DNA of 64,000 nt from an uncultured Gemmatimonadales bacterium (GTDB lineage: Bacteria > Gemmatimonadota > Gemmatimonadetes > Gemmatimonadales > GWC2-71-9), in the NCBI GenBank assembly GCA_963825065.1, contig CAWGRU010000016.1, positions 41,732 through 105,731 on the forward strand. The letters are read 5' to 3'. Below, in pieces: positions 8,030 through 59,686 of this stretch. The translations under genes and the position numbers were made by a program. Positions within the stretch are counted from its first letter, which is position 1; each line of letters opens with the position of its first letter. The notes beneath the pieces are model-generated. The model did no database searches. It was not told where the DNA came from and worked only from the letters and a program-made list of their open reading frames with translations.

Positions 8030-8077
8030 GGCCGCCTCCGTGAAGTCCCCCGGTCCGGGCGCGGACCGGGAGACCGA

Positions 8078-12579: not shown

Positions 12580-15500
12580 TCAGTACTCCCGTTCCCACAG
12601 CACGTCGAGACCCACCTGGTACTTGTTGGTGGACAGCGTCGGGTTGATCACCGCCGCCTGGCAACTGTACGCCGGCTCCACACTCGCCTTGAGGCGCAGG
12701 ACCCGGCTGATCCGGAATTCCGCGCTGGGATAGAACCGCTGGGCGTTGGTGCAGAGATCGGCCACCACCGTCACGAACCAGCGCCGGCCGATCTGCCAGC
12801 CCGCGGCGACCTGAGCCACCTGGGTGGAGCCGCTCTGCCCGGAGAGTCCCGAGGTGCTGCCGCCCCCGGTGCGGATGTCGATGAAGTCGATCGGCACGCC
12901 GAGGTCGCTGATGAGGGTCCGCTGGAGTTCGCTCGAGAGCGCGCTCGAGAGGTACGAGAGCCCCGCCTGAACCGCCGCGTACTGGCTGCTCTGATTGCCC
13001 TGGCCCTGCAGGCTGAAGGTCGGGCGGCGGAACATGAGGTAGGAGACCAGCTCGGTCTGCGACAGCGGGGGCCGCTGCGGCGTCGGGGTGCTGGTGAGCT
13101 CCAGCTTGGGCTGCAGCAGTGTGCCGGTGATCCTGGCGATCACCGGGATATCCTCGTTGCTCTCCACGTCGGTGACGACGTGCTTGGCTTCGATGTCGAG
13201 GTCGGCGTTCAGGTCTGGCGTGCCGAAGTAGCGCACCTGGCCGCGCTCGACCGTGAAGTCCACGGTAACGAATCCCCCGATCCGGAGCGAGTAGTTGCCG
13301 CGCACCGCGTTGAGCGTGCCGTCGTAGCGGTAGCGGTCCCGCACCTTGTTGACGGTGAGATTGCCGTCGAGCTGGATGTTGGCCTCGCTCGAGCGGAGCC
13401 AGAAGCTCTCGCCCATCGTCACCCCGAGATTGTCGATCGTCAGCGAATCGAGAAACCGGCTCTGGAAGTTGGCGCCGAGCTTCTCGGTGCGCACCAGATC
13501 AAGATCGATGAGGCCGGAATCCCCCGGATTCTCGAGATCCACGATCCGCTTGGTCAGCAGGTCGGCGAAGTGCAGGTTCCCGGCGTCCGCAGTCATGCGG
13601 CCACTCAGATGCGCCGCCCAGATGGGGCCGGTGAGCTGCACCGTGCCGGAGGCGTCCAGGGTCACGAACCGGCGCGAGTCGATGGCCCGGAACCGCGAGG
13701 CCCGGAGCGTGAGGTCGAAGAGCGGCCGGGTCAGCCGCTCCAGTCGCAATCCGCCGGTGACCCGCAGGCTCCCTTCGCCGCTCCTCGCGGTGAGGGTGTC
13801 GATCGTGATCGAATCGCCGGAGAGATGGGCCCGCGCGTTGATCGCCGTGTAGCTCACCCCCAGGCCGGGCACGTTCGCCGAGCCACCGCGAATCTCCACC
13901 GTGCCGCCGAGCAGCGGCCGGTCCCAGGTCCCGCCGATTTCGACGCTGGCCCGCAGAAAGCCGCGGACCTTGCGGAGGTTGCGGGTAAACGCCTCCACCA
14001 CCGCGAGGTCGGTGCTGTCGGCGGTGGCACGGACCGACAGCGGCCCGTCCACCTGCCGGCGGGGCACCCGCTGCAGCGCGAGATCGAGCGGCAGTCCGGC
14101 TTCGAGGCGGAGCACCGGCTGCCCCGTCTTCCAGAGCAGCAGGTTCACATCGAGGCGGCGATCGGCGTAATCCACGATGCCCTGCACGAAGGGCGAGCCG
14201 AGGTCGCCGAAGGCCAGGTCGGCGAGGGTGCCGGTGCCGCGAATCGTCGGTTTCGCGGCGGTGCCGCCGATGGTGAAGTCGACCTGAACGGTGCCGGCGA
14301 TGCCCGTGGTGTCGCGCTCGAGCAGCGCATACACATCCTGCAGATCGAGGCCGACCGCGCTCACGGTGAGCTTGCCCGGCGCACTTCGCGGAATGCTCCC
14401 CGTCAGCCGCACAGATCCGGAGCCGTCCACGGCATCGAATGCCACGGGCGAGAGGTCAATCAACCCTGCGTGCTGGGTCACAGTCACCGGGACCCGCAGC
14501 AGCCAGGTACGACGGGGCAGCGCCACCAGAATGCTGTCGAGCGTCAGGACAGTGAGGCTGTCGGGCGGCAGCCAGAGCCCCCCGGCTGCCGCGACATCGG
14601 CGCGACCCGCGAGGTTGCCGCTGCCGCTCCAGTGCAACGAATCCTGGTAACCACCCGCCACGAGGTTGAGGTCGCCGACCGCCCAGGTCCCTATCAGCAG
14701 CGAATCGGTCCGCAGGCCCATGCCGATTTCCGGGCGCGGCGCGCGCTTCCAGCCGAAGGCAAACGAGAGCGGCGCCGACCGAACCGAGCGCCACCGCAGA
14801 TCTTCGCCACGCGCCTGAACCAGCAGCCGGGTTTCCATCGCGGTTCCCGACACCTCGACCTCGCCGGTGACCCGCCCGTGCAGCGGCTCCACGGCGGCGC
14901 CGGTATCTGGCGCTGGTCCGGTGTATCGCTCGAGGAGCGCCTCGAACGGCGTGAGGCTGTCCGCCACGAACGACGCGTGCATACTGCCGCCTTCGGCGCC
15001 GCGCCATGGCAACGTGCCCTGACCCGCGAGCAGGCCGGCGGGCCACTCGGCCACCAGCGTATCCAGGAGGACGCGACCGTCGTGGCCCCGGACCCGGAGG
15101 TGCAGCGAGTCGAGCGAGAGCTCGCGCACGGTGCCCCGGCTCAGATCGAGTGCCAGCGTGCCCTCGGGGCCGGCGAGGGTATCGAGCGCGCCGTCGACGA
15201 GGAGGGCGCCGGTCAGCTGCGTACGCGGCCCGGTGCCGCGGAGCCGGGAGAGATCGACCCCGGCAAACCGCGCCGAGAGACTCTCCGCGCGGATCATCGT
15301 CGAGTCCTGGGCGATCGTCCCCTGCATCGCGAGGGCGCCCAGGTCGCCCTGGACCGCGGTGACCAGGTGGAATCGCGCGGTGGTGCCCTCGACCGCGATC
15401 AGCCCGCTGACCGCACCCTGCACCGGGATCCCGGGGTAGCCGGGGCGCACCCCGTCGAAGACCAGGGGGGCGACGTTCATCCGGGTGTTGAAATGGAGCG

Positions 15501-17007
15501 TGTCGGTACGGGTATCGAGCGTTGCCGTCCCCTCGGCGCGGCTCTCCGGCAGGTCGCCGTCACGGTGGCGAAGGGTGCCGTCGTAGGTCACGTTGCGCCA
15601 CGGTCCGCGCAGCACGCCCTCGAGTGCCACCCGGCCGCGCAGCTCGACACTCGGCGACACCAGGTGCACCGTGCGCAGGTCCACGTCGGCTGCCCGCACC
15701 ACCAGCGTGTCGAAGACCGTGCCCTCGTCGCCGCCCAGGACCAGCCGGCCACCGCCGGCGAAGTGGTTGGTGGCCCCACCTTCGACCACCCTGTCGCTGA
15801 AGGTCACGTCGGCGTCGAGGTCGAGCCCGTCCTTGAAACCGGCGCCGGAGACATGGCCGTCGAGCGTGCCATACAGCGGAATGGTGTCGAGGTACGGACG
15901 GGGGACGTCGAGATCGAGGGCGGTCAGGTCCAGCGCCATGTCCTCGACGCCGAGGCCGCGGTGGGTGTCCACCAGGGCAATCACATGACCGGTGATGCGC
16001 CCTTTCGGCCCCTGCATGACGAGGTCGCGCAGGGTGTACGCGTTGAGCTGCTCGGAGCGGGAATGCACCGTGATCAGCGCGTGACCGGTCATGGCCGGAA
16101 AGTCGGGCGACACCCAGTCGAGATCGCGGAGATCGAGCTGCGGTGCCGTCAGGCTGAAGTCGTACAGCACCGGCCCGCGGGGCCAGGTCACGACGCCACC
16201 ACCCGACATCCGGCTGTTGGGCATCGCGGCGCGATGCACGGTGAAGGCGAGGCTGTCGTCGTGGGTCCAGGCGTGTGCCGCGAGGTCCACCACCGTGATC
16301 GCCGGATCGCTGATGCGGGTGTTCAGCGAATCCACATCGAAGGTCAGCGGGGTGCGCTCGGGGGTGCTGATGCGGAGCAGCGGCAACCGGGCGTTCAGCG
16401 CGTTGAGTTCGGTGATGCGCCGGAGGCCGTCCGGAGTCTCGAGCACCACCCGGCCGGGCCGGGCCCGATCCGCCTCGAGCGCCGCCGCCACCTGCGCCGC
16501 CGTCCGGGCCGTGTCAGGCGGATTCCAGGGCAGCCGCAGCTCGATGTGGCCCTGACGGAGTCGCAGATCGCGCACCTCGATCAGCGGGGACGATCCTCCC
16601 GGCGGCCCCTCGCCGAGCCGGAAGATCTCCTGGTAGTTGAGCCGCCCGTTCTGCCGCTTGATCACCCGGATGTCGGGGGAATCGAGTTCGGCGTGGCTGA
16701 ACACGATGCGCCCGGCGAGCAGGTTCGGGAGCGCGTACACGACCAGGATCCTCGGCACCGTCGCGAACGGCTGGCCGAGCGAGTCGCGAATGACGACGTT
16801 TTCGAGCAGCAGGTTGCTGAAGAAGGTGCCGCTCACCCGGCTCAACTCGAATTGCCCGCGGAAGTGTCCCGAGAGCTCCTGGCTGGCGAGCCGGCCCAGC
16901 AGCCGGTTCCCGGCGCGGGTGTAGAGAATGGCGGAGGAGGTCCCCAACACCGCCGGAACCAGCGCGAGCAGCAGCGCCACCGTGAAGTGGCCGATACGGC
17001 GGCGCAT
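12580..17007 (-). CDS. tamB: Translocation/assembly module TamB/AsmA-like protein
   Basis: 1475 aa with an N-terminal TM anchor, beta-rich repeats and a C-terminal DUF490-like region. It follows a BamA/TamA-type gene with TGATG coupling. Confidence 0.8.
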   Translation of the reverse strand: MRRRIGHFTVALLLALVPAVLGTSSAILYTRAGNRLLGRLASQELSGHFRGQFELSRVSGTFFSNLLLENVVIRDSLGQPFATVPRILVVYALPNLLAGRIVFSHAELDSPDIRVIKRQNGRLNYQEIFRLGEGPPGGSSPLIEVRDLRLRQGHIELRLPWNPPDTARTAAQVAAALEADRARPGRVVLETPDGLRRITELNALNARLPLLRISTPERTPLTFDVDSLNTRISDPAITVVDLAAHAWTHDDSLAFTVHRAAMPNSRMSGGGVVTWPRGPVLYDFSLTAPQLDLRDLDWVSPDFPAMTGHALITVHSRSEQLNAYTLRDLVMQGPKGRITGHVIALVDTHRGLGVEDMALDLTALDLDVPRPYLDTIPLYGTLDGHVSGAGFKDGLDLDADVTFSDRVVEGGATNHFAGGGRLVLGGDEGTVFDTLVVRAADVDLRTVHLVSPSVELRGRVALEGVLRGPWRNVTYDGTLRHRDGDLPESRAEGTATLDTRTDTLHFNTRMNVAPLVFDGVRPGYPGIPVQGAVSGLIAVEGTTARFHLVTAVQGDLGALAMQGTIAQDSTMIRAESLSARFAGVDLSRLRGTGPRTQLTGALLVDGALDTLAGPEGTLALDLSRGTVRELSLDSLHLRVRGHDGRVLLDTLVAEWPAGLLAGQGTLPWRGAEGGSMHASFVADSLTPFEALLERYTGPAPDTGAAVEPLHGRVTGEVEVSGTAMETRLLVQARGEDLRWRSVRSAPLSFAFGWKRAPRPEIGMGLRTDSLLIGTWAVGDLNLVAGGYQDSLHWSGSGNLAGRADVAAAGGLWLPPDSLTVLTLDSILVALPRRTWLLRVPVTVTQHAGLIDLSPVAFDAVDGSGSVRLTGSIPRSAPGKLTVSAVGLDLQDVYALLERDTTGIAGTVQVDFTIGGTAAKPTIRGTGTLADLAFGDLGSPFVQGIVDYADRRLDVNLLLWKTGQPVLRLEAGLPLDLALQRVPRRQVDGPLSVRATADSTDLAVVEAFTRNLRKVRGFLRASVEIGGTWDRPLLGGTVEIRGGSANVPGLGVSYTAINARAHLSGDSITIDTLTARSGEGSLRVTGGLRLERLTRPLFDLTLRASRFRAIDSRRFVTLDASGTVQLTGPIWAAHLSGRMTADAGNLHFADLLTKRIVDLENPGDSGLIDLDLVRTEKLGANFQSRFLDSLTIDNLGVTMGESFWLRSSEANIQLDGNLTVNKVRDRYRYDGTLNAVRGNYSLRIGGFVTVDFTVERGQVRYFGTPDLNADLDIEAKHVVTDVESNEDIPVIARITGTLLQPKLELTSTPTPQRPPLSQTELVSYLMFRRPTFSLQGQGNQSSQYAAVQAGLSYLSSALSSELQRTLISDLGVPIDFIDIRTGGGSTSGLSGQSGSTQVAQVAAGWQIGRRWFVTVVADLCTNAQRFYPSAEFRISRVLRLKASVEPAYSCQAAVINPTLSTNKYQVGLDVLWEREY

Positions 17008-19130
17008 CAGAACGGCTGCCCGAAGCTGAAGTGGTAGGTCAGCCGGCTCTTCCGCTTCTGCACGAAGTCGGTCTGCGCCAGCGACAGCGTGCCGTCCAGC
17101 CGCTGCAGGTAGAGCGCCCCCGGGGGCTGGTCGTAGCCGTTGTAGGCCACGTCAAATCGGGCGGGGCCGAGGGGAGTGTTGAGCCGGAGACCGACGCCCG
17201 GCGTCACCCGCACCCGGATCGGGGAGAGATTGGTCTTGCCCCGTTCGTAGAGGGTGCCGGCATCCACGAAGAGCGCGAGCCGCATGCGGTCGCCAAGCAG
17301 CGGGGCGGGCACCCGCAGCTCGAGCTGCCCCACGGCGAGAGTGTTGCCGCCGGTGGCCGAGAAGCGGGGGCGGATCCGGCCGTCGTTCACCTGCGCCAGG
17401 GTGGAGTCACCGGTGGAATCGCCCGAGATCGCGTTGACCACGTACACCACCGGCCCCAGCTCGTTGCGATCGTAGCCCCGCACATCATTCGGGCCGCCGG
17501 CGTAGAAACGCTGCTCCGGCGGGATGAAGTTGCCGCTGGCACTGTCGAGCGACACCAGGGGCGCGAAGATCAACCCCCCGCGCAAGTGCCAGCTCAACAC
17601 CGTGCCGCCGTTGCCGATCGTCCGGTACCAGGCGACGTCCCCGGCAAGCCGGGTGAAGGTCTGCAGCGGCGCGGACCCGGTGACCCGGGAGCTGTGACTC
17701 ACGTCGAAGGCGTAGAGGTGGCCGCGGCTGGGGTCGAGCGGATTGTTCTGCCGCGGCCAGCTGGCGCCCGCGGTAACGATGCCGAGCAGCCGCTTCTCCC
17801 GGAGCCGGACCGCGTCCTCCGGCGAGCAGGCGTTGAAGAAGGCGCAGAAGGTCGCGGCCGAGGCTTCGGTGGCGCCGAAGGAGAGCCGGTACGACAGCGT
17901 AATGGGGATCCGTCGCGCGGTCTCCCGGGTCAGCGCGAGGGTCACGCCGATGTCCTCGCGGCGGTAGATCTCGAACTCGCTCCGCCGCTCGGCGAAGAGA
18001 CTGAACGTCCCGGTGATGGTCGGGGTGAAGAAGCGCGGCTGCCGCACCGCGGCGGTGATGTTGTAATTCGCCTTCGAGGAGCCGATCGTATCTCCCCGCA
18101 GGCTCTTGCAGAGCGAGTTGTCCAGCCCGAAATCAAAGGGGCGACCGACGCCTACCTTGGAGACCCGGGCCGAGAGGTTGAACAGCCGTCCGGTGTTGAG
18201 CAGGTTGCGGTGGGTCCAACTGGCGCCACCGCGGAAGCAGTCGTTGGTCGCGAATCCGAGACTGGTCCCGATCCGGTGCGCCCGCCCCTCCGACACCAGG
18301 ACGGCCATCGGCACCACGCCGCTCTCGGGCTGGTATTCGGTGGAGTCGATGGTCACCGTCGCCAGCCGGAACAGTTCCGTCTGGTACAGCTTGCGCTGGC
18401 TCTGGAAGATGTCCTGCTCGGAAAAGCGCTGGCCGGGATGGGTGGCGAGGAGTTGGCGGATGAAGGTCGTGTCGACGTGCGTCGCCCCCGAGACCCGGAT
18501 CGGCCCGAAGACCGCCGACGGCCCGGGTACCACATCGAGCGACAGCGTCGCCGAACGGGCGCTACGGTCCACCGCATAGTTCCGGAAGACCTCGGGCCCC
18601 GGGTAGCCGCGGTTGCGCAGCCGGGTGATGATCGAGTCCGCGCTGGCCTGGAAGAGGAACCGGTTGAACGGCGCCCCTTCCCTGAGCGGCAGGTCGGCGA
18701 CCACGTCCTCGTGCTTGGCCACCGAATCGAGCCCGGTCACCTTGATGTCCCGCACCACGATGGGGGGGCCCTCCGTGATCCGGAACCGGAGGTGCACATC
18801 CCGTCCCGAATAGCGGACCAGGGTGTCGACCTTCACCTCCATGAACCCGCTCTGGCGGTAGAACAGCGTCAGGCGCAGCACGTCCCGCCGGAACTCGATC
18901 GGATCGAAGTAGCGCTTCTCCCCGAGACCGAGCCAGCGCACGTACCACTTGCGGGCAAACCAGCTCGAATTGGTCGTCCCGATCGCGATGCTGAGGCTGT
19001 AGTCGTCGATCGCGTGGTTGCCGTCAAACGACAGACTGCGGACCACTCGCGCCGAATCCTGCGCGGCCGCGGGAACCGCCACGACCGCCAGCGCGAGCGC
19101 CGCAATTCCAGCGGAAAGTCTCCGCGTCAC
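17007..19130 (-). CDS. BamA/TamA (Omp85) family outer-membrane protein
   Basis: Signal peptide, POTRA-like repeats, RFYAGG..VRGY motif, C-terminal aromatic residue (GQPF). Confidence 0.88.
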   Translation of the reverse strand: MTRRLSAGIAALALAVVAVPAAAQDSARVVRSLSFDGNHAIDDYSLSIAIGTTNSSWFARKWYVRWLGLGEKRYFDPIEFRRDVLRLTLFYRQSGFMEVKVDTLVRYSGRDVHLRFRITEGPPIVVRDIKVTGLDSVAKHEDVVADLPLREGAPFNRFLFQASADSIITRLRNRGYPGPEVFRNYAVDRSARSATLSLDVVPGPSAVFGPIRVSGATHVDTTFIRQLLATHPGQRFSEQDIFQSQRKLYQTELFRLATVTIDSTEYQPESGVVPMAVLVSEGRAHRIGTSLGFATNDCFRGGASWTHRNLLNTGRLFNLSARVSKVGVGRPFDFGLDNSLCKSLRGDTIGSSKANYNITAAVRQPRFFTPTITGTFSLFAERRSEFEIYRREDIGVTLALTRETARRIPITLSYRLSFGATEASAATFCAFFNACSPEDAVRLREKRLLGIVTAGASWPRQNNPLDPSRGHLYAFDVSHSSRVTGSAPLQTFTRLAGDVAWYRTIGNGGTVLSWHLRGGLIFAPLVSLDSASGNFIPPEQRFYAGGPNDVRGYDRNELGPVVYVVNAISGDSTGDSTLAQVNDGRIRPRFSATGGNTLAVGQLELRVPAPLLGDRMRLALFVDAGTLYERGKTNLSPIRVRVTPGVGLRLNTPLGPARFDVAYNGYDQPPGALYLQRLDGTLSLAQTDFVQKRKSRLTYHFSFGQPF

Positions 19131-19175
19131 AAAATCAGACAGGGGTGTCAGCTCGGCGCCGGCCAGAGAGCGTGA

Positions 19176-19204
19176 TTGACGACGTGGTCCAAGTGCTGTA
19201 GGAT
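19176..19204 (+). promoter_or_regulatory. Sigma70-type promoter of dacB
   Basis: TTGACG (19176-81), 17-nt spacer, TAGGAT (19199-204). Confidence 0.55.
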
Positions 19205-19228
19205 GGCGGGGTTACATCACATAGTCAA
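19200..19228 (-). promoter_or_regulatory. Possible sigma70-type promoter of the bamA-tamB operon, overlapping the dacB promoter
   Basis: Minus strand: TTGACT (19228-23), 17-nt spacer, CATCCT (19205-00). Confidence 0.4.
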
Positions 19229-19249
19229 CGTTGCCAAAGCGGGGTCTCC

Positions 19250-20764
19250 TTGCGTCGTTCGATTGTAGCCATTTCGGTTCTCTCCCTGCTGGCAAGTCCG
19301 CTCGGTGCCCAGCTCCCCAGAGCGGCGACTCGGCAGCTCGATTCTCTGCTCGACGCCCCGCCGTTCAATCGCAATCTGTGGGGCGTGGCCCTGGTTGACG
19401 AGAAGGGCCGGCTGCTGTACGGCCGCAACGCCGACAAGCTGTTCATCCCCGCAAGCAACACGAAGCTGGTCGTTACCACCGTGGCGGCGGCGCTCCTTCC
19501 GCCCGACTGGAGCGTGGAGACCGGTGTCTACACCGCCGCCCCGGTGACCGATGGCGTGGTGCAGGGCGATCTGGTCCTGTACGGCCGGGGCGATCCGACG
19601 ATGGGACGCCGCTGCTTCGCCACCGACACCACGCTCGCCGGCGTCTGCGATCGCGATCCCTTCGCCCGGCTGGCTCAGCTGGCCGAGAGCCTGAAAACCC
19701 GCGGCATTCGGGTGATTCAGGGGGATCTCGTGGGTGACGGGAGCTGGTTCGATGGCGAGTTGATCCACCCCGACTGGGGCAGCTACGACCTCAACTGGTG
19801 GTATGCCGCGCCGGTGAGCGGGCTCGGCTTCAACGACAACAGCGTCGACATCACCTGGCGCCCCGGTCCCGCGGAAGGCACGCCCGCCGCGCTCACCATG
19901 GACCCCAACCTGGGCGACGTCGCCCTGGAAAACCGGACCCGGACGGTCGGCCCCGGCGGCGAGAGCGATATCGGGGACCGCATGTACCGCGAACCCGGCA
20001 CGCTTCAACTCTGGGCCGAGGGGACGGTCGCCCTCGACGGCCGGGGCGGAGTCGAGTACTTCGCGCTCCCGGACCCGAATCTGTACACCGCGCGCGCCTT
20101 CCGGCATGCTCTGGCGGAGGCGGGAATCAGCGTCCTGGGCACCACCCGCAGCACCTCGGATTCGACCAAGTACGCCGCGGCCCGGCAGACGCCGCCGCTC
20201 GCGGAAACCGCGAGCCGGCCGCTGCGCGACTGGATCTTTCCCATTCTGAACAGCAGTCAGAACTGGTACGCCGACATGCTCGTCAAGCAGCTGGGGCGGC
20301 AGTTCGGGAAGGGGGGAAGCTGGAGCGAAGGCATCGCCGTGGAGCGGCGCTTCCTGGTGGACTCCGCCGGCATCGACTCGACGCTCTTCGAGGTGACCGA
20401 CGGATCCGGACTGTCAGCCGCGAACCTGGTGGCCCCGCTGGCATTCACCGGCATGATCCGCTACATCCGGCGGCACCCGCACTTCGCCCAGAACTTCCTG
20501 CCCGGGCTCCCTCAGTCCGGCAGCCCCGGTTCGCTCAAGCACCGCTTCGTGGGGACGCCGCTCGAGGGCCGGGTGCACGCCAAGACCGGCAGCATCTCGC
20601 GGGTGAACACCCTGTCGGGCTACTTCGAGCTGGCCGATGGCCGGAGCTACACCTTCTCGGTGATGGCGAACCATCACACCCAGGGCGGCCGACGCATGCT
20701 GGCGGAGATCGACAGCATCGTGGTCGCGATGGCGGCGGCGGCCAGTAAGCAGAAGAAGAACTGA
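19250..20764 (+). CDS. dacB: D-alanyl-D-alanine carboxypeptidase/endopeptidase (PBP4, S13)
   Basis: PASNTK (SxxK), SQN (SxN), AKTGS (KTG), signal peptide. Confidence 0.92.
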   Translation: MRRSIVAISVLSLLASPLGAQLPRAATRQLDSLLDAPPFNRNLWGVALVDEKGRLLYGRNADKLFIPASNTKLVVTTVAAALLPPDWSVETGVYTAAPVTDGVVQGDLVLYGRGDPTMGRRCFATDTTLAGVCDRDPFARLAQLAESLKTRGIRVIQGDLVGDGSWFDGELIHPDWGSYDLNWWYAAPVSGLGFNDNSVDITWRPGPAEGTPAALTMDPNLGDVALENRTRTVGPGGESDIGDRMYREPGTLQLWAEGTVALDGRGGVEYFALPDPNLYTARAFRHALAEAGISVLGTTRSTSDSTKYAAARQTPPLAETASRPLRDWIFPILNSSQNWYADMLVKQLGRQFGKGGSWSEGIAVERRFLVDSAGIDSTLFEVTDGSGLSAANLVAPLAFTGMIRYIRRHPHFAQNFLPGLPQSGSPGSLKHRFVGTPLEGRVHAKTGSISRVNTLSGYFELADGRSYTFSVMANHHTQGGRRMLAEIDSIVVAMAAAASKQKKN

Positions 20765-22719: not shown

Positions 22720-23832
22720 ATGCGCACGCTCTACTCCACGACGGCCGCGGTGCTCCTCGCCGGACTCCTCGGTTGCGCCGCCATCGGCGGCGTCATCGAC
22801 GACCTCGCCACCGAGCGGCCACCCGGCCCGCTCGATGCGGCTACCGTCGCCAGCGACGCGCGCCTCGATTCGCTGGGTCGGGTGGCGGGCAGCTTCGTGG
22901 GCGAAGGCACCCGCCGGGAGGTCCATCTGCTCTCCACCGACACGGCGCTCATCGCGGATCTGGCCCGGCGCTACCGCCCCGCGCGTGATCGCCGGGGCGA
23001 CATCTGGCAGTGGCTGGCAACCAGACGCAGCTTCGTCGTCGACACGCCGGAACGGGTCCTCGGTGCACCTGGTCCTCAGCAGGGGATACTGGTCGGATCG
23101 CCCGACGGGCATACACCGGTCCGCCTGCGGTCGATCGTGCTGCACGGCTCTTCCTGCGGGTGGCGGGGCAGCCAGGCCGAATTCATCGTGGAACAGGTCA
23201 GCCGGGACGGACCGTGGCTCCGCGGCCCGGTTGTCGGCGCGTTCTTCGCACCCGAGGACTGGCTCAGCAGGACCGATAGTCATTACCGCGAAGCGGTGAC
23301 TGCGCCATCCGCGGCGCTCACCGACAGCCTGCTCGCGTGGACGTCCCGGGCGATGGACTCGCTCCTGGTGCGGGGCCTGCCGGCGCGCGATCGTCCCCTC
23401 ACCCACGTCGAGGGCGTACCGCACCTGCTCAACGGCCTCGGCGACGAGAACGCGGCCGATGTCCTCGCCTTCCGGCTCGATGATGGGCGGGTGCGCTACG
23501 CCGTCTCCCTGCGCGAGGGTCTGCGGACCGGGCGCGGGCAGGACGTGCAGGGGGCGATCGTCATGGTGTGGGATGCGTCCGGAAGCTGGCGGCAGGTGAT
23601 CTTCCGGCCCACCCTGCTCGAGTACCGCCGCAACCGGCTCGCTCGCGCCCACGGCGGGCTCACCCCGCCGCTGTTCTGGCGCCGGCTGGCGGCGGTGAGC
23701 GGCTTCGCGTTCGATCGCGACTATCTCTGGATGGAGCAGGTGAATGTCGAGGACGGCACCATCCTCTGGGTGATCCTCGAACCGCGCAGCAACACGGTCG
23801 TCGCGGCAGCCGAAATGGATGGACCATGCTGA
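22720..23832 (+). CDS. Hypothetical lipoprotein
   Basis: MRTLYSTTAAVLLAGLLG-C lipobox. Coupled to the downstream GNAT gene. Confidence 0.72.
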   Translation: MRTLYSTTAAVLLAGLLGCAAIGGVIDDLATERPPGPLDAATVASDARLDSLGRVAGSFVGEGTRREVHLLSTDTALIADLARRYRPARDRRGDIWQWLATRRSFVVDTPERVLGAPGPQQGILVGSPDGHTPVRLRSIVLHGSSCGWRGSQAEFIVEQVSRDGPWLRGPVVGAFFAPEDWLSRTDSHYREAVTAPSAALTDSLLAWTSRAMDSLLVRGLPARDRPLTHVEGVPHLLNGLGDENAADVLAFRLDDGRVRYAVSLREGLRTGRGQDVQGAIVMVWDASGSWRQVIFRPTLLEYRRNRLARAHGGLTPPLFWRRLAAVSGFAFDRDYLWMEQVNVEDGTILWVILEPRSNTVVAAAEMDGPC

Positions 23833-33752: not shown

Positions 33753-33920
33753 CTACATCTTGTGGGTGGTGTCGCGCGCCATCATGGAGTCGGTCATCGA
33801 CTTCATCGAATCGGCGGCGGCCGGAGCGGCCGCGGCGGAATCGGCAGCCGGAGTGGCCTCTTCCTTCTTGCCGCAGGCGGCAACGGCCAGAACCGCAGCC
33901 ACGACCAGATACTTCTTCAT
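33753..33920 (-). CDS. 55-aa small lipoprotein; not in the ORF track
   Basis: MKKYLVVAAVLAVAA-CGKKEEATPAADSAAAAPAAADSMKSMTDSMMARDTTHKM. AGGAG SD, lipobox VAAC, own promoter and terminator. Confidence 0.88.
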   Translation of the reverse strand: MKKYLVVAAVLAVAACGKKEEATPAADSAAAAPAAADSMKSMTDSMMARDTTHKM

Positions 33921-39071: not shown

Positions 39072-40523
39072 TTACCGCGTGATGACACGCTTGGCCGATG
39101 CTCCCGCCGCAAGCTGGGCATTCCCGTCTGCCACACCGTTGATCAGCGCCAGGGTCTCGATCGGCACCACCGAGGGATACTGGCGGTTGAACTCGGCGAG
39201 CGTCATCGCCCGCGGAACCCGGGTGATCATCAGCCGGTTGGGCTTGATCCCCAGCGCCGCCGGATCGGTCAGTCGCCGGAAGCTGCCGATGAAACCGCGG
39301 AAGGCCGCGTCGTAGGCCTGCGCCGACTGGTTCGTCAGCCCGAGGAGCTGGTAGGTCGTGCCGTCGTAGCTGATGAAGGCGACCAGACCATTGAGCGTAC
39401 TGCCGTCCTGGTTCTGGGCGCTGAAGGGCGCCAGCGCCGCCGCGTTCCCGTTGATGGTGGTCTGGCTCGAGCGCCCGGCCTGGATACCCTCCTGCGCCAG
39501 AAACTGCTGCAGCACATCCGAAGGAGCACCCTTCCCCGCGAAACCGAGCGTGACCTGGGCGTCGCCCTGCGAACTCTGCCCCACCACGGCCGACGGCTGG
39601 TTCTGGGTCTTCCAGCCCGGGGGGAAGTCGATCTGGAAGGCGAGATCGGGGTGCAGGAACTGGGTCCCCTTGAAGTAGCCCTGCCGCGGGTTGTCACCGA
39701 ACACCATGCCGTCGATCACCCTCAGGAACTGGTCCCGGTTCACCTTCTTGCCGTCGAGCGGCACGGTCACCCGGGAGAGCCGCCCCTTGGTGGTCTCGAT
39801 CCGGTTCCCCGGGTCGGGGTGGGTCGATTGCCACTCGGGGATACGCTGGCCCGCCGTGGCGCTGATCCGCTGCAGAACGGCGAACATGTCCACCATCTTC
39901 CGGACGTCGTAGCCGTCGTTCAGGGCGTAGCGGAAGCCGAGGCCATCGGCCTGGGTCTCGTCGTCGCGGCTGTACTTCAGGAACAGGGCCCCGACGCCCT
40001 GGCTGATGATCCCCAGGTTCTTGGCGATCTTGTCGCTCGCGATCGCGCCCGCGACCATCCCGATCTGCGCGATCTGCTGGCGGGTCATCTGCTGGACGGA
40101 ATGCCGCGCCGTCACGTGTCCGATCTCGTGACCCACCACCGTGGCCAGCTCGGCCTCCGAATTCATGTGGGTCATGATGCCCCGCGTCACGAAGATGAAT
40201 CCCCCGGGCAGCGCAAAGGCGTTCACGGTGGGGTCGTCCATCACGGTAAAGGTCCACGGCAGTGCAGGCCGCTCGGTACCGGCGGCGAGTTCCTTGCCCA
40301 GCCGGTTGACGTAGACCTGGACGCCGGAATCGGGATAGGCCCCCATCTCCTGGGTGACCTGCCCCGCATACTCCCGGCCCATGGAGATCTCCTGGCTCTC
40401 GGAGACGAACGAGAGTTCCTTCTTGCCGGTGACCGGATTGGTGGCGCAGGTTGTGAGGGCGCCGACGAGCGACAGCGCGAGCGCGGCGCGCCAGCTGGTC
40501 CCGATGCGAGCAGCGATGGTCAC
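39072..40523 (-). CDS. M48 family metalloprotease lipoprotein with C-terminal LysM-like segment
   Basis: C-ATNPVTG lipoprotein N-terminus, NAFALPGG, HEIGH, YSRDDE..AD, STHP. Confidence 0.88.
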   Translation of the reverse strand: MTIAARIGTSWRAALALSLVGALTTCATNPVTGKKELSFVSESQEISMGREYAGQVTQEMGAYPDSGVQVYVNRLGKELAAGTERPALPWTFTVMDDPTVNAFALPGGFIFVTRGIMTHMNSEAELATVVGHEIGHVTARHSVQQMTRQQIAQIGMVAGAIASDKIAKNLGIISQGVGALFLKYSRDDETQADGLGFRYALNDGYDVRKMVDMFAVLQRISATAGQRIPEWQSTHPDPGNRIETTKGRLSRVTVPLDGKKVNRDQFLRVIDGMVFGDNPRQGYFKGTQFLHPDLAFQIDFPPGWKTQNQPSAVVGQSSQGDAQVTLGFAGKGAPSDVLQQFLAQEGIQAGRSSQTTINGNAAALAPFSAQNQDGSTLNGLVAFISYDGTTYQLLGLTNQSAQAYDAAFRGFIGSFRRLTDPAALGIKPNRLMITRVPRAMTLAEFNRQYPSVVPIETLALINGVADGNAQLAAGASAKRVITR

Positions 40524-40562
40524 GGAGACTTCCTCCCGGATCAGTGGAGTGCGTCCGGACCC

Positions 40563-43500
40563 TCAGGCCCCGAGGCGCTCGGTCGACAGCATGTCACGCA
40601 CCCGGTCAAGCAGCGCCGAGGGCGAAAATGGCTTCTGCAGATAGTCGGTCCCGTGGCCGAACCCGCCGGTGTCGAGGATCGCCTCGTTGGTGTACCCGGA
40701 CACGAACAGGACCCGGAGACCGGGGCGCATCCCGGCGAGCAGATCGGCCAGCTTCCGGCCGCCCATGCGGGGCATGATCACATCGGTGATCATGAGGTCG
40801 ATCTCCCCGGCCCATTCCCCGACCACCCGCAGGGCCGCTTCGCCGTGCTCGGCCACCAGCACCGTGTACCCGGCGCGGCGCAGGGTCCGGCAGACGAGGT
40901 CACGGACCATCTCCTCGTCTTCGACCACGAGGACGGTGCCGCTCGCCGGCGGCATCGCTGGCGGGGCGCCACTGCCCGGGTTGTCCGCCGGCCGCTCCCG
41001 CACCTCCGGCAGGTATACTCGCACGGTAGTGCCCAAACCGGGAGTGCTCTCAAGATGGATACCGCCCTCGCTCTGGCGGACGATACCGTAGACCGTGGAA
41101 AGCCCCAGTCCGGTCCCCTTGCCCTGTTCCTTGGTCGTGAAGAACGGATCGAAGGCACGACGCTGGACATCGGCCGCCATCCCGGCCCCGGTGTCGGCGA
41201 CCGTGAGGCAGACATGCGGGCCGGGCTGGATCTCGAGGAAGGTCCGCGCGAAGTTCTCGTCGAGCCGCACTGTCGCAGTGGAAATCGTGAGCGTCCCGCC
41301 GCCGGGCATGGCATCCCGGGCGTTGAGCACCAGGTTCAGCAGCACCTGCTCCAGCTGGCCCCGATCCACACGCACGAAGCACTCCGCGCCGGCGTGGTGG
41401 ATCACCAGGCGCACATCCTCGCCGATGAGGCGCCGGAGCATGCCTCCCATCTGGTCCACCACCCTGGGGAGATCGAGGACCTGCGGCGCCAGAATCTGCT
41501 GACGGCTGTAGGCGAGCAGCTGCCGGGTGAGGCTCGCCGCCCGCTCGGCCGCCCGGGTGATTTCCTCCGCATCCTCGTGCTGCTGGCCTCCGGGCGGCAG
41601 GGTCTCCCGGAGCGCCTCCGCGTAACCGGTGATCGCCGTGAGCAGGTTGTTGAAATCGTGCGCCACGCCCCCCGCCAGCTTGCCGACCGCCTCCATCTTC
41701 TGCGCCTGACGGAGCTGTTCCTCCAGTCGCTTCCGTTCGGTGATGTCGGCGACGGCACCGTCGTAGTACTGCACCGTGCCGTTGTGCCCGCGGACGCCGG
41801 TGCTGCTCAGCAGCGCCCAGAAGGGCGTGCCATCCTTGCGGACGAATCGCACCTCCTCGTTCGCGAAGCATCCGCGCTCGGCGATCACCCGCTCGAGTTC
41901 CTCGCGTCGCGCCGGGTCCTGAAACCGCATCGCCGACGGCACCCGGAGCATCGCCTCGGGTGACTCGTACCCGAACATGCGCGCGAAGGCGGCGTTGGCG
42001 TACACCAGGCCGCCGACCGGCGTGCTGCGGTAGAGCCCCTCGTTCACGTTGCGGTTGATGGACGCCAGCAGATCCTCGCGGCGCTCCCGCTCCAGCGCGA
42101 TCCCCGCGAGCGCCGCCGCTCGCTCCACCAGGGCGAGCTCCTGCGGCTCGGGCGCGCGGGGTTCGCGGTAGTAGACCGCGAAGGTGCCGAGAATCTCCCC
42201 CGAGGCGGCCCGGATCGGCACCGACCAGCAGGCGCGGAGGCCGTGGGGCAATGCGGCGGACCGGTAGTCCTCCCACAGCGGATCGGTGGCGATGTCCCTG
42301 ACAATCACCGTCCGGCCGGTGTAGGCCGCGGTGCCGCAGGAACCGGCCTTCGGGCCGATCTCCACCCCTTCGATCGCGGCGTTGTAGTCCGCCGGCAGGG
42401 AGGGCGCCGCGGCCACGTGCATCCGGGTCCCTTCGAGCAGCAGGATCGAACACAGCCCGTCTCCGGTCAGCCCCTCGATCCCGCGCACCGTGGCGTCCAG
42501 CACGTCGGCGATCGGCTGCCCGGTGGCCACCAGTTCCAGCACCCGCGCCTGCCAGGCCAGCATCGCCTCGGCCCGCTTGCGGTCGGTGATATCGCGGACA
42601 AGACCGAGGACTTCGCCATCCCCCAGCGGGAGGTAGCGCGCCTCACCCACCCGGGGGCGCCCCAGAGAGGACAGCACATACTCGATCGGCACCGGTGGCT
42701 TGCCCGCCAGCGCGGCGCGAATCAGGCGCTCCATCGCTTCCGCCTGGGCCGGCACGACGTCGCGCACGTGGCGGCCGATCAGCTCCTCTCGGGGCACGGT
42801 CGCGATGGCCCCGGGAGGGACATACATGTCGAGATAGGTCCCGTCCGCGCTCAACCGGTAGGTGATGTCGGGCAGAATCTGCTGAAAGGCGTTCCGCAGT
42901 GTGTCACTCTTGAGTCGGCCCGCGAGGGCCGTCTCCCGCTCGGCGATGAGCGCGCCGAACACCAGCGGCACCGCCACGAGCAGCACCTCGAAGCCCTGCA
43001 CCGCCTCGAGCCGCTGGTTCATCGGCACCAGGAGGAACGGTCCGAAGCCATGCGTCGTGGCGATGGCGACGACGAGCGCGGTCAGCGAGGCCGCCGACGC
43101 CGCACCCCGCGGCCCGAAACGCAGCGCGGCGTACAGCGCCAGGGGCAGGACCAGGCAGAGCAGCAGCACCGCCACGGCACCGGTCGCGAACAGCGTCATG
43201 GCGCCAGCCAGCAGCAGGCAGATCGCACCCCCGATCCCGACCGCCTGGAGCGTGGCGCGATCCCGGATCGGCGCGATCGGCGGGCCGATCCAGGTGCCGG
43301 CCAGCGGCAGCACCGTCAGGACCCCGAGCGCGTTCATCCGCCACCACCCTGCCCACCCCGCGTAGAAGGGCATGCCGGGATCGTGCCAGAAGTACCCCCG
43401 GGCCGCCCAGGAACAGAGCAGGCTCGCCAGCGGCGCCACGGCGGCCACCACGAACAGCGTCGCCACGTCCCGGAGTCGCTCGAGTGTGCCGCGATAGCCG

Positions 43501-43793
43501 AGCGAACGGAGAATCGTCACCCCCACGACGGCCTCCAGCGCACTTCCTGCGGCCGCCGGCAGCAGAACCGCCAGATCGTAGCCGAGCAGCAGGCGCTGCA
43601 GTACCGTGACGAGCGCGACCACCCACCAGGCCGACGGCCCGAGGAGCCATAGCCCGGCGATGGCCACCCCGGAAGGCAGCCAGATCACCGCCTGGCTGAT
43701 CGCCGGCGAGTCGGCCTCGCGCATGAGGGCCGACGCCGTCAGCACAAGCGCGAAGAGCAGGAGCCGCCTGGACCGGGGAAGAAGTCGTCCCAT
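40563..43793 (-). CDS. Hybrid sensor kinase (MASE1-PAS-GAF-PAS-HisKA-HATPase-REC)
   Basis: N-terminal multi-TM (IWLPSG, MASE1-like), SCGTAAY GAF, AHDFNNLL, GTGLGL, REC VEDE/TDVIMP. Start inferred at ATG 43793. Confidence 0.87.
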   Translation of the reverse strand: MGRLLPRSRRLLLFALVLTASALMREADSPAISQAVIWLPSGVAIAGLWLLGPSAWWVVALVTVLQRLLLGYDLAVLLPAAAGSALEAVVGVTILRSLGYRGTLERLRDVATLFVVAAVAPLASLLCSWAARGYFWHDPGMPFYAGWAGWWRMNALGVLTVLPLAGTWIGPPIAPIRDRATLQAVGIGGAICLLLAGAMTLFATGAVAVLLLCLVLPLALYAALRFGPRGAASAASLTALVVAIATTHGFGPFLLVPMNQRLEAVQGFEVLLVAVPLVFGALIAERETALAGRLKSDTLRNAFQQILPDITYRLSADGTYLDMYVPPGAIATVPREELIGRHVRDVVPAQAEAMERLIRAALAGKPPVPIEYVLSSLGRPRVGEARYLPLGDGEVLGLVRDITDRKRAEAMLAWQARVLELVATGQPIADVLDATVRGIEGLTGDGLCSILLLEGTRMHVAAAPSLPADYNAAIEGVEIGPKAGSCGTAAYTGRTVIVRDIATDPLWEDYRSAALPHGLRACWSVPIRAASGEILGTFAVYYREPRAPEPQELALVERAAALAGIALERERREDLLASINRNVNEGLYRSTPVGGLVYANAAFARMFGYESPEAMLRVPSAMRFQDPARREELERVIAERGCFANEEVRFVRKDGTPFWALLSSTGVRGHNGTVQYYDGAVADITERKRLEEQLRQAQKMEAVGKLAGGVAHDFNNLLTAITGYAEALRETLPPGGQQHEDAEEITRAAERAASLTRQLLAYSRQQILAPQVLDLPRVVDQMGGMLRRLIGEDVRLVIHHAGAECFVRVDRGQLEQVLLNLVLNARDAMPGGGTLTISTATVRLDENFARTFLEIQPGPHVCLTVADTGAGMAADVQRRAFDPFFTTKEQGKGTGLGLSTVYGIVRQSEGGIHLESTPGLGTTVRVYLPEVRERPADNPGSGAPPAMPPASGTVLVVEDEEMVRDLVCRTLRRAGYTVLVAEHGEAALRVVGEWAGEIDLMITDVIMPRMGGRKLADLLAGMRPGLRVLFVSGYTNEAILDTGGFGHGTDYLQKPFSPSALLDRVRDMLSTERLGA

Positions 43794-43899
43794 TCCCCAA
43801 GTTCTCGTCGGCGGACCCGGAATGCCATAGGGCGGGAAGTTCGAGCGGCCAGCCCGGAAATCCGGACTGGCCGCTTCGGATATCAGATGCCGCGCTCTC

Positions 43900-46026
43900 C
43901 TACATGGCGGGGCGGGCACCGTCTCGCGCCTCGAGCTCGTCGGCGAGCGCGTGCGCGTCGTACACCCGGCGCAGGGCATGGACGATCGCCCGCGAGTCGA
44001 CCCACACCGAGCGGGCGACCCGTTCGGTGAACAGGAAGCGGTTCGGCAGCATCTCGATGTTGCCGTCGAAGATCAGCCCGACCACCTCGGCGTCCCGGTT
44101 GATCACCGGGCTGCCGGAGTTGCCACCGATGATGTCGTTGGTCGACACCACATTGAACGGTGTGTCGGTGGTGAGCGAATCGCGCCGTTCCTGCCAGCGG
44201 GTGGGCAGATCGAAGGGCGGCTGCCCGCCGAAAGCCGCGGAACGCTCGTACAGCCCGTTGAAGGTGGTGTAGGGCGCGGCCACGCTTCCGTTCATCGGAT
44301 AGCGGCGGACTTCGCCGTCCGAGATGCGCAGGCTGAAGGTTGCATCGGGCGCGACCTGGTCGCCGTAGACCGCCAGCAGCGCACGGGCGACCTGCTCGTT
44401 GGCCTGCGCCTCCCGATCGTTCAGATCGGTGACCTCGCGGATCATGGCCCGTTCCAGCGGATCGATCACCCGGGCGAGCCGGATGAACGGGTCCGTGGAG
44501 GCGGCGAGGCCCGCCGCGCCCCCGTCGCTGAGGGCCTTGCGGGCCTCCGCGGTGGCAATCGTAACGGCATCGACCATGGCACTCGCCGCGGCGTCCGGCG
44601 TCCGTCCCTGCAGCGCCTGGCGGACCACCGGATCGGTCGCCGGCAGCTCGCGCTGCATCGCGGCGAGGTAGGCGGCGAGCAGGGCCTTCTCCTGGGTCAG
44701 GTCGATCGGCTGCTCGCTGAAGAGCACCCGCTCGATGTTCGCCTTGTTCGCCTCCTGGTACGCGGAGAGTCGGGCCGAGTCGGCCTTGGCGGTCTCGACC
44801 CGGTAGCGAATGATCCCCATCGCGAGTCCAAGGAGGCGTGCACCGTAGGCCCCGGTCGCGTAGTAACGGCGGCGCACGTCGATCTGCCGCCGGCGCGCCG
44901 AGACATCGGCGATCGTCAGCCAGGCCCTTCCGTACTTCGCCTTCAGCGCCGGGGTGGCCTCCACCTTGGCGCGGAAGGCCTTCTCCCACTCCTGCTTGTG
45001 CGCCATCAGCCTGGGATCCAGCAGTCCGGTCTGGTAGCCGCCGATCGCCTTCTGGGTGTTCTCGAGGCCGAAGATCGTATTCCGCAGCGCCTTGGCGCGA
45101 ACGGTGTCGGACTGGCCGAGGGCGTGGAAGGTCGCGATCTGCCGGCGCAGGGCGTCCAGCTGCGCGGGGTACTGCACGTCGCGGAGGAAGGTGAGCTGGG
45201 CCATCGTGTTCAGCCGTCCGGTGGATCCCGGGTTGCCGATCACGAAGGTGAGGTCGCCCTCCTTGGAGCCGTTCCGGCTCCAGCTGAAGTGCTGCGGGGT
45301 CTGCGCCGGCTTGCCATCCACGTAGGCCCGCACGAAGCTCATGTCCAGATCGAAGCGGGGGTAGGTGAAGTTGTCCGGATCGCCACCGAAGAACGCGGTC
45401 TGCTCCTCCGGCGCGAACACCAGCCGGATGTCCTTGTAGCGGTGGAACCGGTACAGCTTGTACTGTCCGCCGCGGTACATCGTCACCACCTGGCATGCCG
45501 CGTCCGGTTCGGTCCTGCCGCACTCTTCCTCGATCGCCTTGATCACCTTGGCCCGCTGCAGTGCCGCGGTCTTGGCGGCGGCGGTCGGCGAAGCGGACGA
45601 GCTCACCTTGTCGGTGACGTCGGTGATCTGCTGGAGCTGGTCGAGGAAGAGCCCCTGACAGGCCCGCTCATCTTCCCGCCGGGCCGCGTAGAAGCCGTTG
45701 CTGAGGAAGTCCTCTCCTTCCCTGGTGGTGGACTCGATGCAGGCGCGGGCGCAGTGGTGGTTGGACATCACCAGCCCATCGCCTGACACGAAGGACGCGG
45801 TGCACCCGTTGCCGTAGCGGAGCGCGGAGAGCCGCGCGTGCTCCAGCCACGCATCCGAGGGCGCAAAGTTGTAGCGCTTCGCCCAGTACTCGCGGGGCGG
45901 AGCATCGAAGGTCCACATCTTCCCGGTCTCGAGACCCGGGTATTCGCCCTCCAGCACATCCTGGGCACGGAGTGCCCCGGGAAGGACCAGAAGGAGCGGG
46001 AGCAGCAGAGTACGGAGGATACGCAT
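43900..46026 (-). CDS. S46 family dipeptidyl peptidase
   Basis: Signal peptide, GKMWT, GCTASFVS..GLVMSNHHC, DNFTYPR..LD, IIGGNSGSPVIN. Confidence 0.92.
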   Translation of the reverse strand: MRILRTLLLPLLLVLPGALRAQDVLEGEYPGLETGKMWTFDAPPREYWAKRYNFAPSDAWLEHARLSALRYGNGCTASFVSGDGLVMSNHHCARACIESTTREGEDFLSNGFYAARREDERACQGLFLDQLQQITDVTDKVSSSASPTAAAKTAALQRAKVIKAIEEECGRTEPDAACQVVTMYRGGQYKLYRFHRYKDIRLVFAPEEQTAFFGGDPDNFTYPRFDLDMSFVRAYVDGKPAQTPQHFSWSRNGSKEGDLTFVIGNPGSTGRLNTMAQLTFLRDVQYPAQLDALRRQIATFHALGQSDTVRAKALRNTIFGLENTQKAIGGYQTGLLDPRLMAHKQEWEKAFRAKVEATPALKAKYGRAWLTIADVSARRRQIDVRRRYYATGAYGARLLGLAMGIIRYRVETAKADSARLSAYQEANKANIERVLFSEQPIDLTQEKALLAAYLAAMQRELPATDPVVRQALQGRTPDAAASAMVDAVTIATAEARKALSDGGAAGLAASTDPFIRLARVIDPLERAMIREVTDLNDREAQANEQVARALLAVYGDQVAPDATFSLRISDGEVRRYPMNGSVAAPYTTFNGLYERSAAFGGQPPFDLPTRWQERRDSLTTDTPFNVVSTNDIIGGNSGSPVINRDAEVVGLIFDGNIEMLPNRFLFTERVARSVWVDSRAIVHALRRVYDAHALADELEARDGARPAM

Positions 46027-59678: not shown

Positions 59679-59686
59679 GGCTCACC

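Follow-up and report, generated by a model that had tools for sequence, protein, structure and literature searches.

The window described here is a stretch of 64,000 nucleotides from an uncultured Gemmatimonadales bacterium of soil (C16:41732-105731 of the source assembly, G000, which comprises 4.35 Mb in 21 contigs with 69% GC and is 90%-complete). The exported proteins encoded in it were examined regarding the tripeptide D-[ST]-[AILMTV], the sequon of general protein O-glycosylation in Bacteroidota. For each protein the expected number of sequons was calculated from its own composition, and the ratio of observed to expected counts is given as O/E. An excess of the sequon was found in three neighbouring genes for envelope proteins:

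12580..17007, minus strand: TamB-like protein of 1475 amino acids (aa) with signal anchor or signal peptide (Pfam TamB, 160 bits)
17007..19130, minus strand: BamA-like Omp85/POTRA protein of 707 aa (Pfam Omp85 and POTRA)
19250..20764, plus strand: DacB/PBP4-type D-Ala-D-Ala carboxypeptidase of 504 aa with a signal peptide for signal peptidase I (SPI) (Pfam Peptidase_S13, 290 bits)

Together these three proteins (12580-20764) contain 37 sequons, with 10.5 expected (Poisson P=1.7e-10). The TamB-like protein holds 21 against 6.5 expected (P=0 in 2000 shuffles), at aa 75, 165, 226, 251, 374, 433, 502, 568, 609, 633, 649, 683, 768, 789, 816, 824, 899, 997, 1065, 1070 and 1187; 12 of the 21 are of the type DS[LI]. 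For DacB six sequons were counted (1.8 expected; aa 31, 126, 304, 371, 376 and 488). The BamA-like protein contains ten (2.2 expected), including the tandem GDSTGDST at aa 569-577. Seven of them are located in the periplasmic N-terminal or POTRA part (aa 25, 102, 135, 165, 220, 262 and 347) and three in barrel loops (aa 529, 571 and 575). For comparison, E. coli BamA has four sequons with 3.3 expected. The sites of the BamA-like protein, for which the first-pass annotation of this DNA had expected surface loops, were mapped on a model computed with AlphaFold2 from 16 orthologues (mean predicted local distance difference test score 82). No sequon lies in a barrel strand, and the seven periplasmic sites are found in loops and at helix starts, apart from one within a helix and one at a strand edge.

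Four further genes of the window encode proteins with elevated counts or, in the case of the kinase, sequons mainly on one side of the membrane, and two encode exported peptidases that are not loaded:

22720..23832, plus strand: lipoprotein of 370 aa with lipobox LLGC, no Pfam family; 4 sequons, 1.3 expected
33753..33920, minus strand: lipoprotein of 55 aa, no Pfam family; 4 sequons, 0.4 expected
39072-40523, minus strand: M48 peptidase, exported; 0 sequons, 1.3 expected
43900-46026, minus strand: S46 peptidase, exported; 3 sequons, 2.0 expected
52191..54296, plus strand: glycoside hydrolase family 20 (GH20) beta-N-acetylhexosaminidase of 701 aa with SPI signal (Pfam Glyco_hydro_20, 322 bits); 8 sequons, 2.0 expected, P=0.001
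55211..57166, plus strand: Ser/Thr protein kinase with one transmembrane (TM) helix at aa 378-396 (Pfam Pkinase at aa 51-298); 4 sequons, 2.0 expected

Three sequons of the kinase (aa 421, 452 and 539) are extracytoplasmic and one (aa 202) lies in the cytoplasmic kinase part. In the first-pass annotation the sequons had been counted by hand, with about 20 for the TamB-like protein, about ten for BamA, about six for DacB, about eight for GH20, four for the lipoprotein at 22720 and three behind the TM helix of the kinase. The recount (21, 10, 6, 8, 4 and 3) agrees with these values, and the protein names given there were borne out by Pfam. The same holds for the cytoplasmic comparators ALDH, FNR, GS, AAA and vWA, for which 0-2 sequons each were reported and found, with about one expected. 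The general statement that exported proteins are loaded is valid for TamB, BamA, DacB, GH20 and the lipoproteins, but not for the M48 and S46 peptidases. Over the whole window, the eight signal-peptide proteins carry 56 sequons (17.4 expected) and the 32 cytoplasmic proteins 22 (20.3 expected). In the lipoprotein of 55 aa, the mature part of 39 aa is rich in Ala, Pro and Met and holds DSA, DSM, DSM and DTT; this protein would be a compact natural glycosylation reporter.

The excess was then determined for the whole source genome. With a codon-model gene caller written for this analysis, 3954 genes (86% coding) were obtained. Proteins were assigned by a home-made heuristic classifier (SPI signal; lipobox, i.e. 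signal peptidase II, SPII; TM helix), resulting in 704 signal-peptide and 1891 cytoplasmic proteins. The former contain 1571 sequons, with 706 expected (O/E 2.22), the latter 1297, with 1264 expected (O/E 1.03). Shuffling of the signal-peptide class left 712±25 sequons when whole proteins were permuted (z=34), and 737±23 or 776±27 when the permutation was confined to windows of 15 or 8 aa, respectively (z=29-36 overall), while shuffled cytoplasmic proteins gave 1273±30 (z<1). The genome-wide count against composition-shuffled controls, which had been proposed as a check, thus leaves the excess in place. It was found for SPI proteins (2.15), for SPII lipoproteins (2.38) and in every size class, and an O/E of 1.97 remained after removal of the top 5% of proteins. 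At least one sequon is present in 76% of the exported proteins of at least 150 aa and in 48% of the cytoplasmic proteins. An artefact at the DNA level was rejected, as the enrichment extends to both codon families for Ser and to both codons for Asp. Of all proteins of the genome, a lipoprotein of 438 aa (C4:254215-255531) with Big_5 and CarboxypepD_reg-like domains shows the strongest enrichment (15 sequons, 1.8 expected).

The enrichment is specific for the tripeptide. In an unbiased scan of all tripeptides in exported proteins, DSL, DSA, DST and DSV ranked first (z=15-23), closely followed by DTL and DSI. At the first position of x-[ST]-[AILMTV] only Asp is enriched (2.22); the other residues range from 0.77 to 1.14, with 0.77 for Glu. 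Ser is preferred over Thr at the second position (3.0 for DS-x, 1.5 for DT-x). For the third position, D-S-x reaches an O/E of 2.2-3.6 with A, I, L, M, T and V, 1.55 with S and 1.2 with G, and falls below 1 with all other residues. Neither protein class departed from expectation for the control patterns E-[ST]-x, N-[ST]-x and D-[AG]-x, or when the motif was reversed or its order permuted in two ways. No extended motif was detected around the sequon; its flanks show just a mild avoidance of Asp and Glu. A different trait of Bacteroidota, the 'Bacteroidetes Q-rule' (Gln after the signal-peptide cut), was considered and rejected, because AxA-Q is no commoner here than in E. coli or Ralstonia.

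The compartment-specific excess claimed from the window was also observed within membrane proteins. In predicted single-pass proteins, segments facing the periplasm have an O/E of 2.53 (123/48.7) and those facing the cytoplasm one of 1.47 (86/58.5); under a stricter charge rule these ratios become 3.04 and 1.11. For candidate substrates of twin-arginine translocation (Tat), a strict RRxF[LIVMA] rule was applied (n=16), since an earlier, looser pattern had mostly picked Sec signals with RR. These candidates contain 20 sequons with 16.5 expected (1.21), which is significantly lower than the value for Sec-type proteins (2.22; P=0.002). Tat substrates are without excess, and therefore the selection concerns proteins that cross the membrane unfolded. 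Mechanistically, this hints at a modification before folding.

Comparable results were obtained with relatives of the source organism; all control genomes were run through the same pipeline. In the BamA-TamB-DacB neighbourhoods of 18 relatives (seven genera of the order, 62-76% GC), signal-peptide proteins have 537 sequons with 162 expected (3.31), and cytoplasmic proteins an O/E of 1.22. Each of 17 TamB orthologues carries 17-28 sequons with 5.4-7.9 expected, a 3-4 fold excess that persists down to 27% identity. The mean conservation of the TamB motif as a unit is 0.66, that of DacB 0.89 (11 orthologues). In DacB the sites 304 (as DST, DSM or DSL) and 371 (as DSA, DSV, DSM or DSL) are kept in 11 of 11 orthologues. 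Among 18 BamA orthologues a valid sequon is found in 15-16 at sites 102 (DTL, DTV, DTT, DTA), 165 (DSI, DTI, DSL) and 571 (DTI, DTL, DSL, DTA, DSM, DSV). In TamB and DacB, Asp and Ser/Thr show higher conservation inside the sequons than elsewhere; for BamA this applies to Asp only. The single contig of 4,636,964 bp of a genome of the same order (G088) gave 2.40 for signal-peptide and 1.13 for cytoplasmic proteins. Pooled values are 2.06 for genomes from other orders of the class and 1.81 for those from other classes. For G123 a value of 1.29 was obtained, with 0.88 for large proteins.

Outside the phylum, samples of E. coli K-12 (400 kb; signal-peptide proteins 1.11, cytoplasmic proteins 0.93) and of a Ralstonia megaplasmid (67% GC, 400 kb; 1.16 and 1.03) were analysed. 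The sequon tripeptides are not among the top tripeptides of these two samples. The chromosome OY760505.1 of 'Candidatus Delongbacteria' (G141) was included by chance, having passed the 16S signature by which the genome scan selected Bacteroidota. Its exported proteins have an O/E of 1.70 (79 sequons, 46 expected) with DSL as top tripeptide. TamB (PF04357) was not detected in this chromosome.

The sequon of Bacteroidota was defined experimentally: Asp is obligatory, Glu is not tolerated, Ser is slightly preferred at the second position, and L, I, V, T, A, S or M stands at the third in about 90% of the sites (PMC12871550). The motif enriched in the source genome matches it at all three positions. 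The oligosaccharyltransferase (OTase) of Bacteroidota has escaped identification for over 15 years (PMC12871550) and was still undiscovered according to a 2025 review. In a 2026 preprint, the Comstock laboratory predicted YfhO (PF09586) in silico for this role (bioRxiv 10.64898/2026.07.27.740950). Consistent with the first-pass annotation, no transferase is encoded in the window; candidate genes of the GT-C type of membrane glycosyltransferases are found elsewhere.

Of 121 genomes from the phylum, 120 contain a YfhO-like GT-C protein (about 800 aa, 11-13 TM helices), with 75 of 75 genera represented; the exception is the source assembly. The protein aligns over its full length with YfhO of Bacteroidota (20-21% identity, E=1e-15 to 1e-26). 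The Pfam YfhO model is passed with 39 bits, mostly at the C-terminal end. With phmmer no meaningful match to the Protein Data Bank was obtained. YfhO was also found in genomes of Porphyromonas uenonis and Bacteroides caecigallinarum and, as a frame of 802 aa, in the Delongbacteria chromosome. Two YfhO-like clusters of the phylum are:

G066 (same genus as the source organism), C1:634001-654000, local positions 6169-12296, plus strand: YfhO-like cluster directly downstream of the lpt-rpoN cluster
L183, 3468-8926, minus strand: YfhO-like cluster, likewise directly downstream of lpt-rpoN

The gene order in G066 is kdsA, kdsC, lpt genes, rpoN, a glycosyltransferase of family 2 (GT2), one of family 4 (GT4), a 7-TM protein, the YfhO-like gene, a Dpm1-like GT2, dapF, surE, gpsA, plsY and der. 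In general, the YfhO-like gene of Gemmatimonadota is flanked by a Dpm1/GtrB-like GT2, a multi-TM protein, and a GT4 with either a GT2 or a deacetylase-like gene. The membrane protein beside it matches LPG_synthase_TM in G012, while its counterpart in G066 is without Pfam family. From the gene arrangement, the cluster is a putative module for extracytoplasmic glycosylation dependent on a lipid-phosphate monosaccharide. The YfhO-like proteins of G011 and G012 share about 31-33% identity with proteins of the same genus and 53-54% with those of genus g10, which suggests two divergent lineages or a horizontal replacement.

The second candidate family, TMEM260-like GT-C proteins (PF11028), is encoded by all 21 relatives and, across the phylum, by 120 of the 121 genomes, as a rule twice per genome. 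Of 14 control genomes, that of B. thetaiotaomicron alone was positive. The family was also found in six of six free-living Bacteroidota tested and in the Delongbacteria chromosome (frame of 964 aa), but not in E. coli, the Ralstonia replicon or the endosymbiont Karelsulcia. In the source genome both copies are present:

C4:210788-213142: TMEM260-like protein of 784 aa with 11 TM helices (PF11028, 138 bits; cut-off 24)
C4:260238-262502: TMEM260-like protein of 754 aa with 11 TM helices (PF11028, 149 bits; cut-off 24)

Both are homologous to a Bacteroidaceae protein along both halves, and the copy of 754 aa matches the structure of human TMEM260 (9rql, E=1.7e-19). Their neighbourhoods in the source genome contain housekeeping genes only and no glycan-synthesis context. 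These bacterial homologues are considered putative protein O-mannosyltransferases; the one support for this activity is a phyletic pattern that matches the sequon signal. As YfhO-like and TMEM260-like proteins are both widespread, they are not distinguishable here by distribution.

In our view a general O-glycosylation of Sec-exported proteins at D-(S/T)-(A/I/L/M/T/V), homologous to that of Bacteroidota, explains these observations best and is probable, because the sequons coincide exactly and the GT-C enzymes are shared. The selection for the same modification as in Bacteroidota, postulated in the first-pass annotation, is supported by motif, compartment, controls, conservation and these shared families. 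Thus, a system described as unique to Bacteroidota (PMC12871550) is probably at work in a second phylum. According to this model, selection would have increased the number of sequons in most lipoproteins and most proteins of the periplasm and outer membrane, and would have preserved them there. The sequon would be read by a membrane GT-C glycosyltransferase that acts from the periplasmic face before the chains have folded. Candidate readers are the two TMEM260-like proteins of the source genome and the YfhO-like protein. In Bacteroidota O-glycans the sugar linked to Ser/Thr is mannose, the core further contains deoxyhexose and hexuronic acid, and the LFG-type locus for the outer glycan comprises metG, a wzx flippase, variable glycosyltransferases and two conserved terminal ones. 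For Gemmatimonadota, a first step of O-mannosylation from a polyprenyl-phosphate-mannose donor followed by elongation would be plausible, with en-bloc transfer as an alternative.

Several points weigh against this interpretation, above all the Bacteroidota themselves. In samples of 580 kb in total, the O/E of signal-peptide proteins was 0.76 for a Bacteroidaceae metagenome-assembled genome (MAG), 1.15 for Flagellimonas and 0.66 for Myroides; pooled, 129 sequons were counted with 158 expected, i.e. no excess. Exported proteins above 700 aa (SusC/D-like, fimbrial/adhesin-like and probable cargo of the type IX secretion system) are depleted, with 0.23-0.46. A few periplasmic proteins of these bacteria are strongly loaded (6-9 sequons, 1-2 expected), e.g. 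an FtsI-like penicillin-binding protein adjoining YfhO, and the depletion suggests that Bacteroidota avoid glycosylation on surface proteins. Since the pooled value (0.66-1.15) is no hallmark of the known system, it was rejected as such, and TamB orthologues were compared instead: four Bacteroidota have 39 sequons with 21.3 expected (1.8 fold, P=4e-4), whereas E. coli TamB is at 0.98. Chryseobacterium sp. E1 was discarded as positive control due to a frameshift-ridden assembly (mean open reading frame (ORF) 185 aa; YfhO frame 209 aa). The main caveat is that the footprint of the known system is both fainter and less uniform than that of the source genome. As the positive control fails to validate the excess as a hallmark, the support rests on the identity of the motif and on the shared enzymes.

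Within the phylum the excess is uneven, being clear in families f4, f5 and f10, weak in f6, f7 and f12, and absent from the small sample of f11 (0.75-1.13). Literature searches revealed no glycan, mass-spectrometry or lectin evidence for any Gemmatimonadota protein, nor a publication that links this phylum to O-glycosylation. The assignment of signal peptides and topology is heuristic; errors of gene caller and classifier should dilute the contrast rather than create it. YfhO-like and TMEM260-like proteins are predicted readers of the sequon, and the role of YfhO as OTase is itself the in-silico prediction of a preprint. Furthermore, no YfhO-like gene was found in the source assembly by Pfam, tblastn or phmmer with Bacteroidota and Gemmatimonadota queries. 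The housekeeping block of about 20 kb that is contiguous in G066 has no orthologues in the source assembly. Because kdsA, rpoN, dapF, surE, plsY, gpsA and der are missing too, the absence of the YfhO-like gene is read as an assembly gap, and genes not found in this MAG should accordingly not be counted as lost.

Other explanations of the excess were considered. That it is a by-product of composition, of secondary structure (Asx/ST turns, helix N-caps), of repeated domain families or of calling artefacts is highly improbable and largely refuted. It is true that several BamA sequons are located at helix N-termini or in loops, and that gene caller and signal-peptide classifier are home-made. However, the excess withstands shuffling of whole proteins and of windows of 8-15 aa, it is found with either signal type and in proteins of every size class, it does not depend on the top 5% of proteins, and it is present in Pfam-verified proteins and their orthologues. 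The reversed motif, the E and N variants and D-[AG]-x are flat, there is no excess in the cytoplasmic proteins of the same genome or among exported proteins from the E. coli and Ralstonia samples, and misclassification would weaken the signal instead of producing it.

A second explanation accepts that the tripeptide is read, but by machinery other than a glycosyltransferase, e.g. for another modification of Ser/Thr, for chaperoning or quality control, or as a sorting or protease-protection signal, so that the match with Bacteroidota would be coincidental. The evidence from enrichment, compartment and conservation is statistical throughout and demonstrates reading, not what is attached; in addition, Bacteroidota glycosylate the motif yet lack the same pooled excess. 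We nevertheless regard such a reader as unlikely. To our knowledge, no non-glycan system uses D-S/T-hydrophobic. Two GT-C families that are near-exclusive to Bacteroidota among the controls are universal in Gemmatimonadota, and each of the three positions of the enriched set agrees with the glycosylation motif, down to the odd Thr at the third and the lack of Glu at the first (PMC12871550). Rather more doubtful still is O-glycosylation at the motif by a convergent, non-homologous system, for instance with an enzyme of the PglL/Wzy_C or PMT type. As the OTase of Bacteroidota is unknown, homology of the machinery is not provable; the YfhO-like proteins of the two phyla are just 20-21% identical, and the motif is used far more heavily here than in Bacteroidota. 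But an identical specificity for three residues is unlikely to arise twice, both candidate GT-C families are common to the phyla, and the signal in Delongbacteria (1.70) fits vertical inheritance within the FCB (Fibrobacteres-Chlorobi-Bacteroidetes) group.

Compared with the system of Bacteroidota, the proposed homologous system has the motif D-(S/T)-(A/I/L/M/T/V) with preference for Ser and exclusion of Glu in common. Its targets would likewise be confined to extracytoplasmic proteins and to those parts of membrane proteins that face the periplasm, and would account for a large share of the exported proteins, which for Gemmatimonadota is predicted from the motif. YfhO-like and TMEM260-like GT-C genes are present in both. 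Differences were found in the extent of the excess (2.2-3.3 fold pooled here; none pooled and 1.8 fold in TamB there) and in large outer-membrane and surface proteins, which are loaded here and depleted there. The YfhO-like gene of Gemmatimonadota is located near lpt-rpoN together with Dpm1-like GT2, GT4, GT2 and LPG_synthase_TM-like genes and not beside luxS/sahH or the dcw cluster; a Dpm1-like GT2 beside YfhO was found in none of the three Bacteroidota examined. Besides, Gemmatimonadota are a different phylum, in which the system is predicted from sequences.

Similarities to further systems were observed as well. The eukaryotic GT-C O-mannosyltransferases (TMEM260, PMT1-4/POMT, TMTC1-4) have homologues here according to PF11028 and the match to 9rql. 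The eukaryotic enzymes use a polyprenol-type phosphate donor to attach mannose to Ser/Thr at the non-cytoplasmic face of the membrane, but recognise folds or Ser/Thr-rich regions and not a D-S/T-x sequon. In the three-component systems of Firmicutes (CsbB/GtrB-like GT2, flippase and YfhO GT-C) a GT-C of the YfhO family adjoins a GT2 of the polyprenyl-phosphate-sugar-synthase type, as in Gemmatimonadota. Their acceptor is teichoic acid, which does not occur in the diderm Gemmatimonadota, and sequence identity is low. The PglL/PilO-type systems of Neisseria, Burkholderia and Acinetobacter resemble the proposed one in being general and OTase-dependent, with O-glycosylation of many periplasmic and membrane proteins. 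They use an OTase with Wzy_C domain and have no strict sequon, modifying Ser in low-complexity stretches rich in Ala and Pro. In contrast, the motif found here has a strictly obligatory Asp at position -1 and no flank preference beyond the mild avoidance of acidic residues.

If a Bacteroidota-type system indeed operates in Gemmatimonadota, the majority of their envelope proteins would be expected as targets, among them BamA, TamB and PBP4. The occurrence of the same sequon in a second phylum, with a far stronger footprint, would point to an older and more widespread system than assumed so far. Comparative genomics would narrow the search for the OTase to the shared GT-C families, YfhO-like and TMEM260-like, of which the latter is homologous to a proven human protein O-mannosyltransferase. 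Cultured Gemmatimonas, which is not host-associated, would then allow the function of the glycan in folding, protease protection or envelope integrity to be studied. A more far-reaching version is conceivable, although we rate it as rather less than an even chance: the system would be ancestral to a large part of the FCB group (Bacteroidota, Gemmatimonadota, Delongbacteria) and not an invention of Bacteroidota, one of the two shared GT-C families (most attractively TMEM260-like, alternatively YfhO) would add the linking mannose from a polyprenyl-phosphate donor to unfolded Sec chains, and Gemmatimonadota would depend on the modification more than any known bacterium, with sequons in about three quarters of the exported proteins.

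Two observations concern other parts of the window. On the minus strand, a multi-TM protein is encoded between the M48 and S46 peptidases (within 39072..46026). At 58122-62681, likewise on the minus strand, the ORF 58122-59282 starts inside a sequence that looks like the SusD/RagB type. Up to 62681 it is accompanied by overlapping, broken long ORFs (59872-61488 and 61215-62681) that were split by the gene caller. This region may encode a SusC/SusD-like pair that is disrupted by frameshifts or whose starts were called wrongly.

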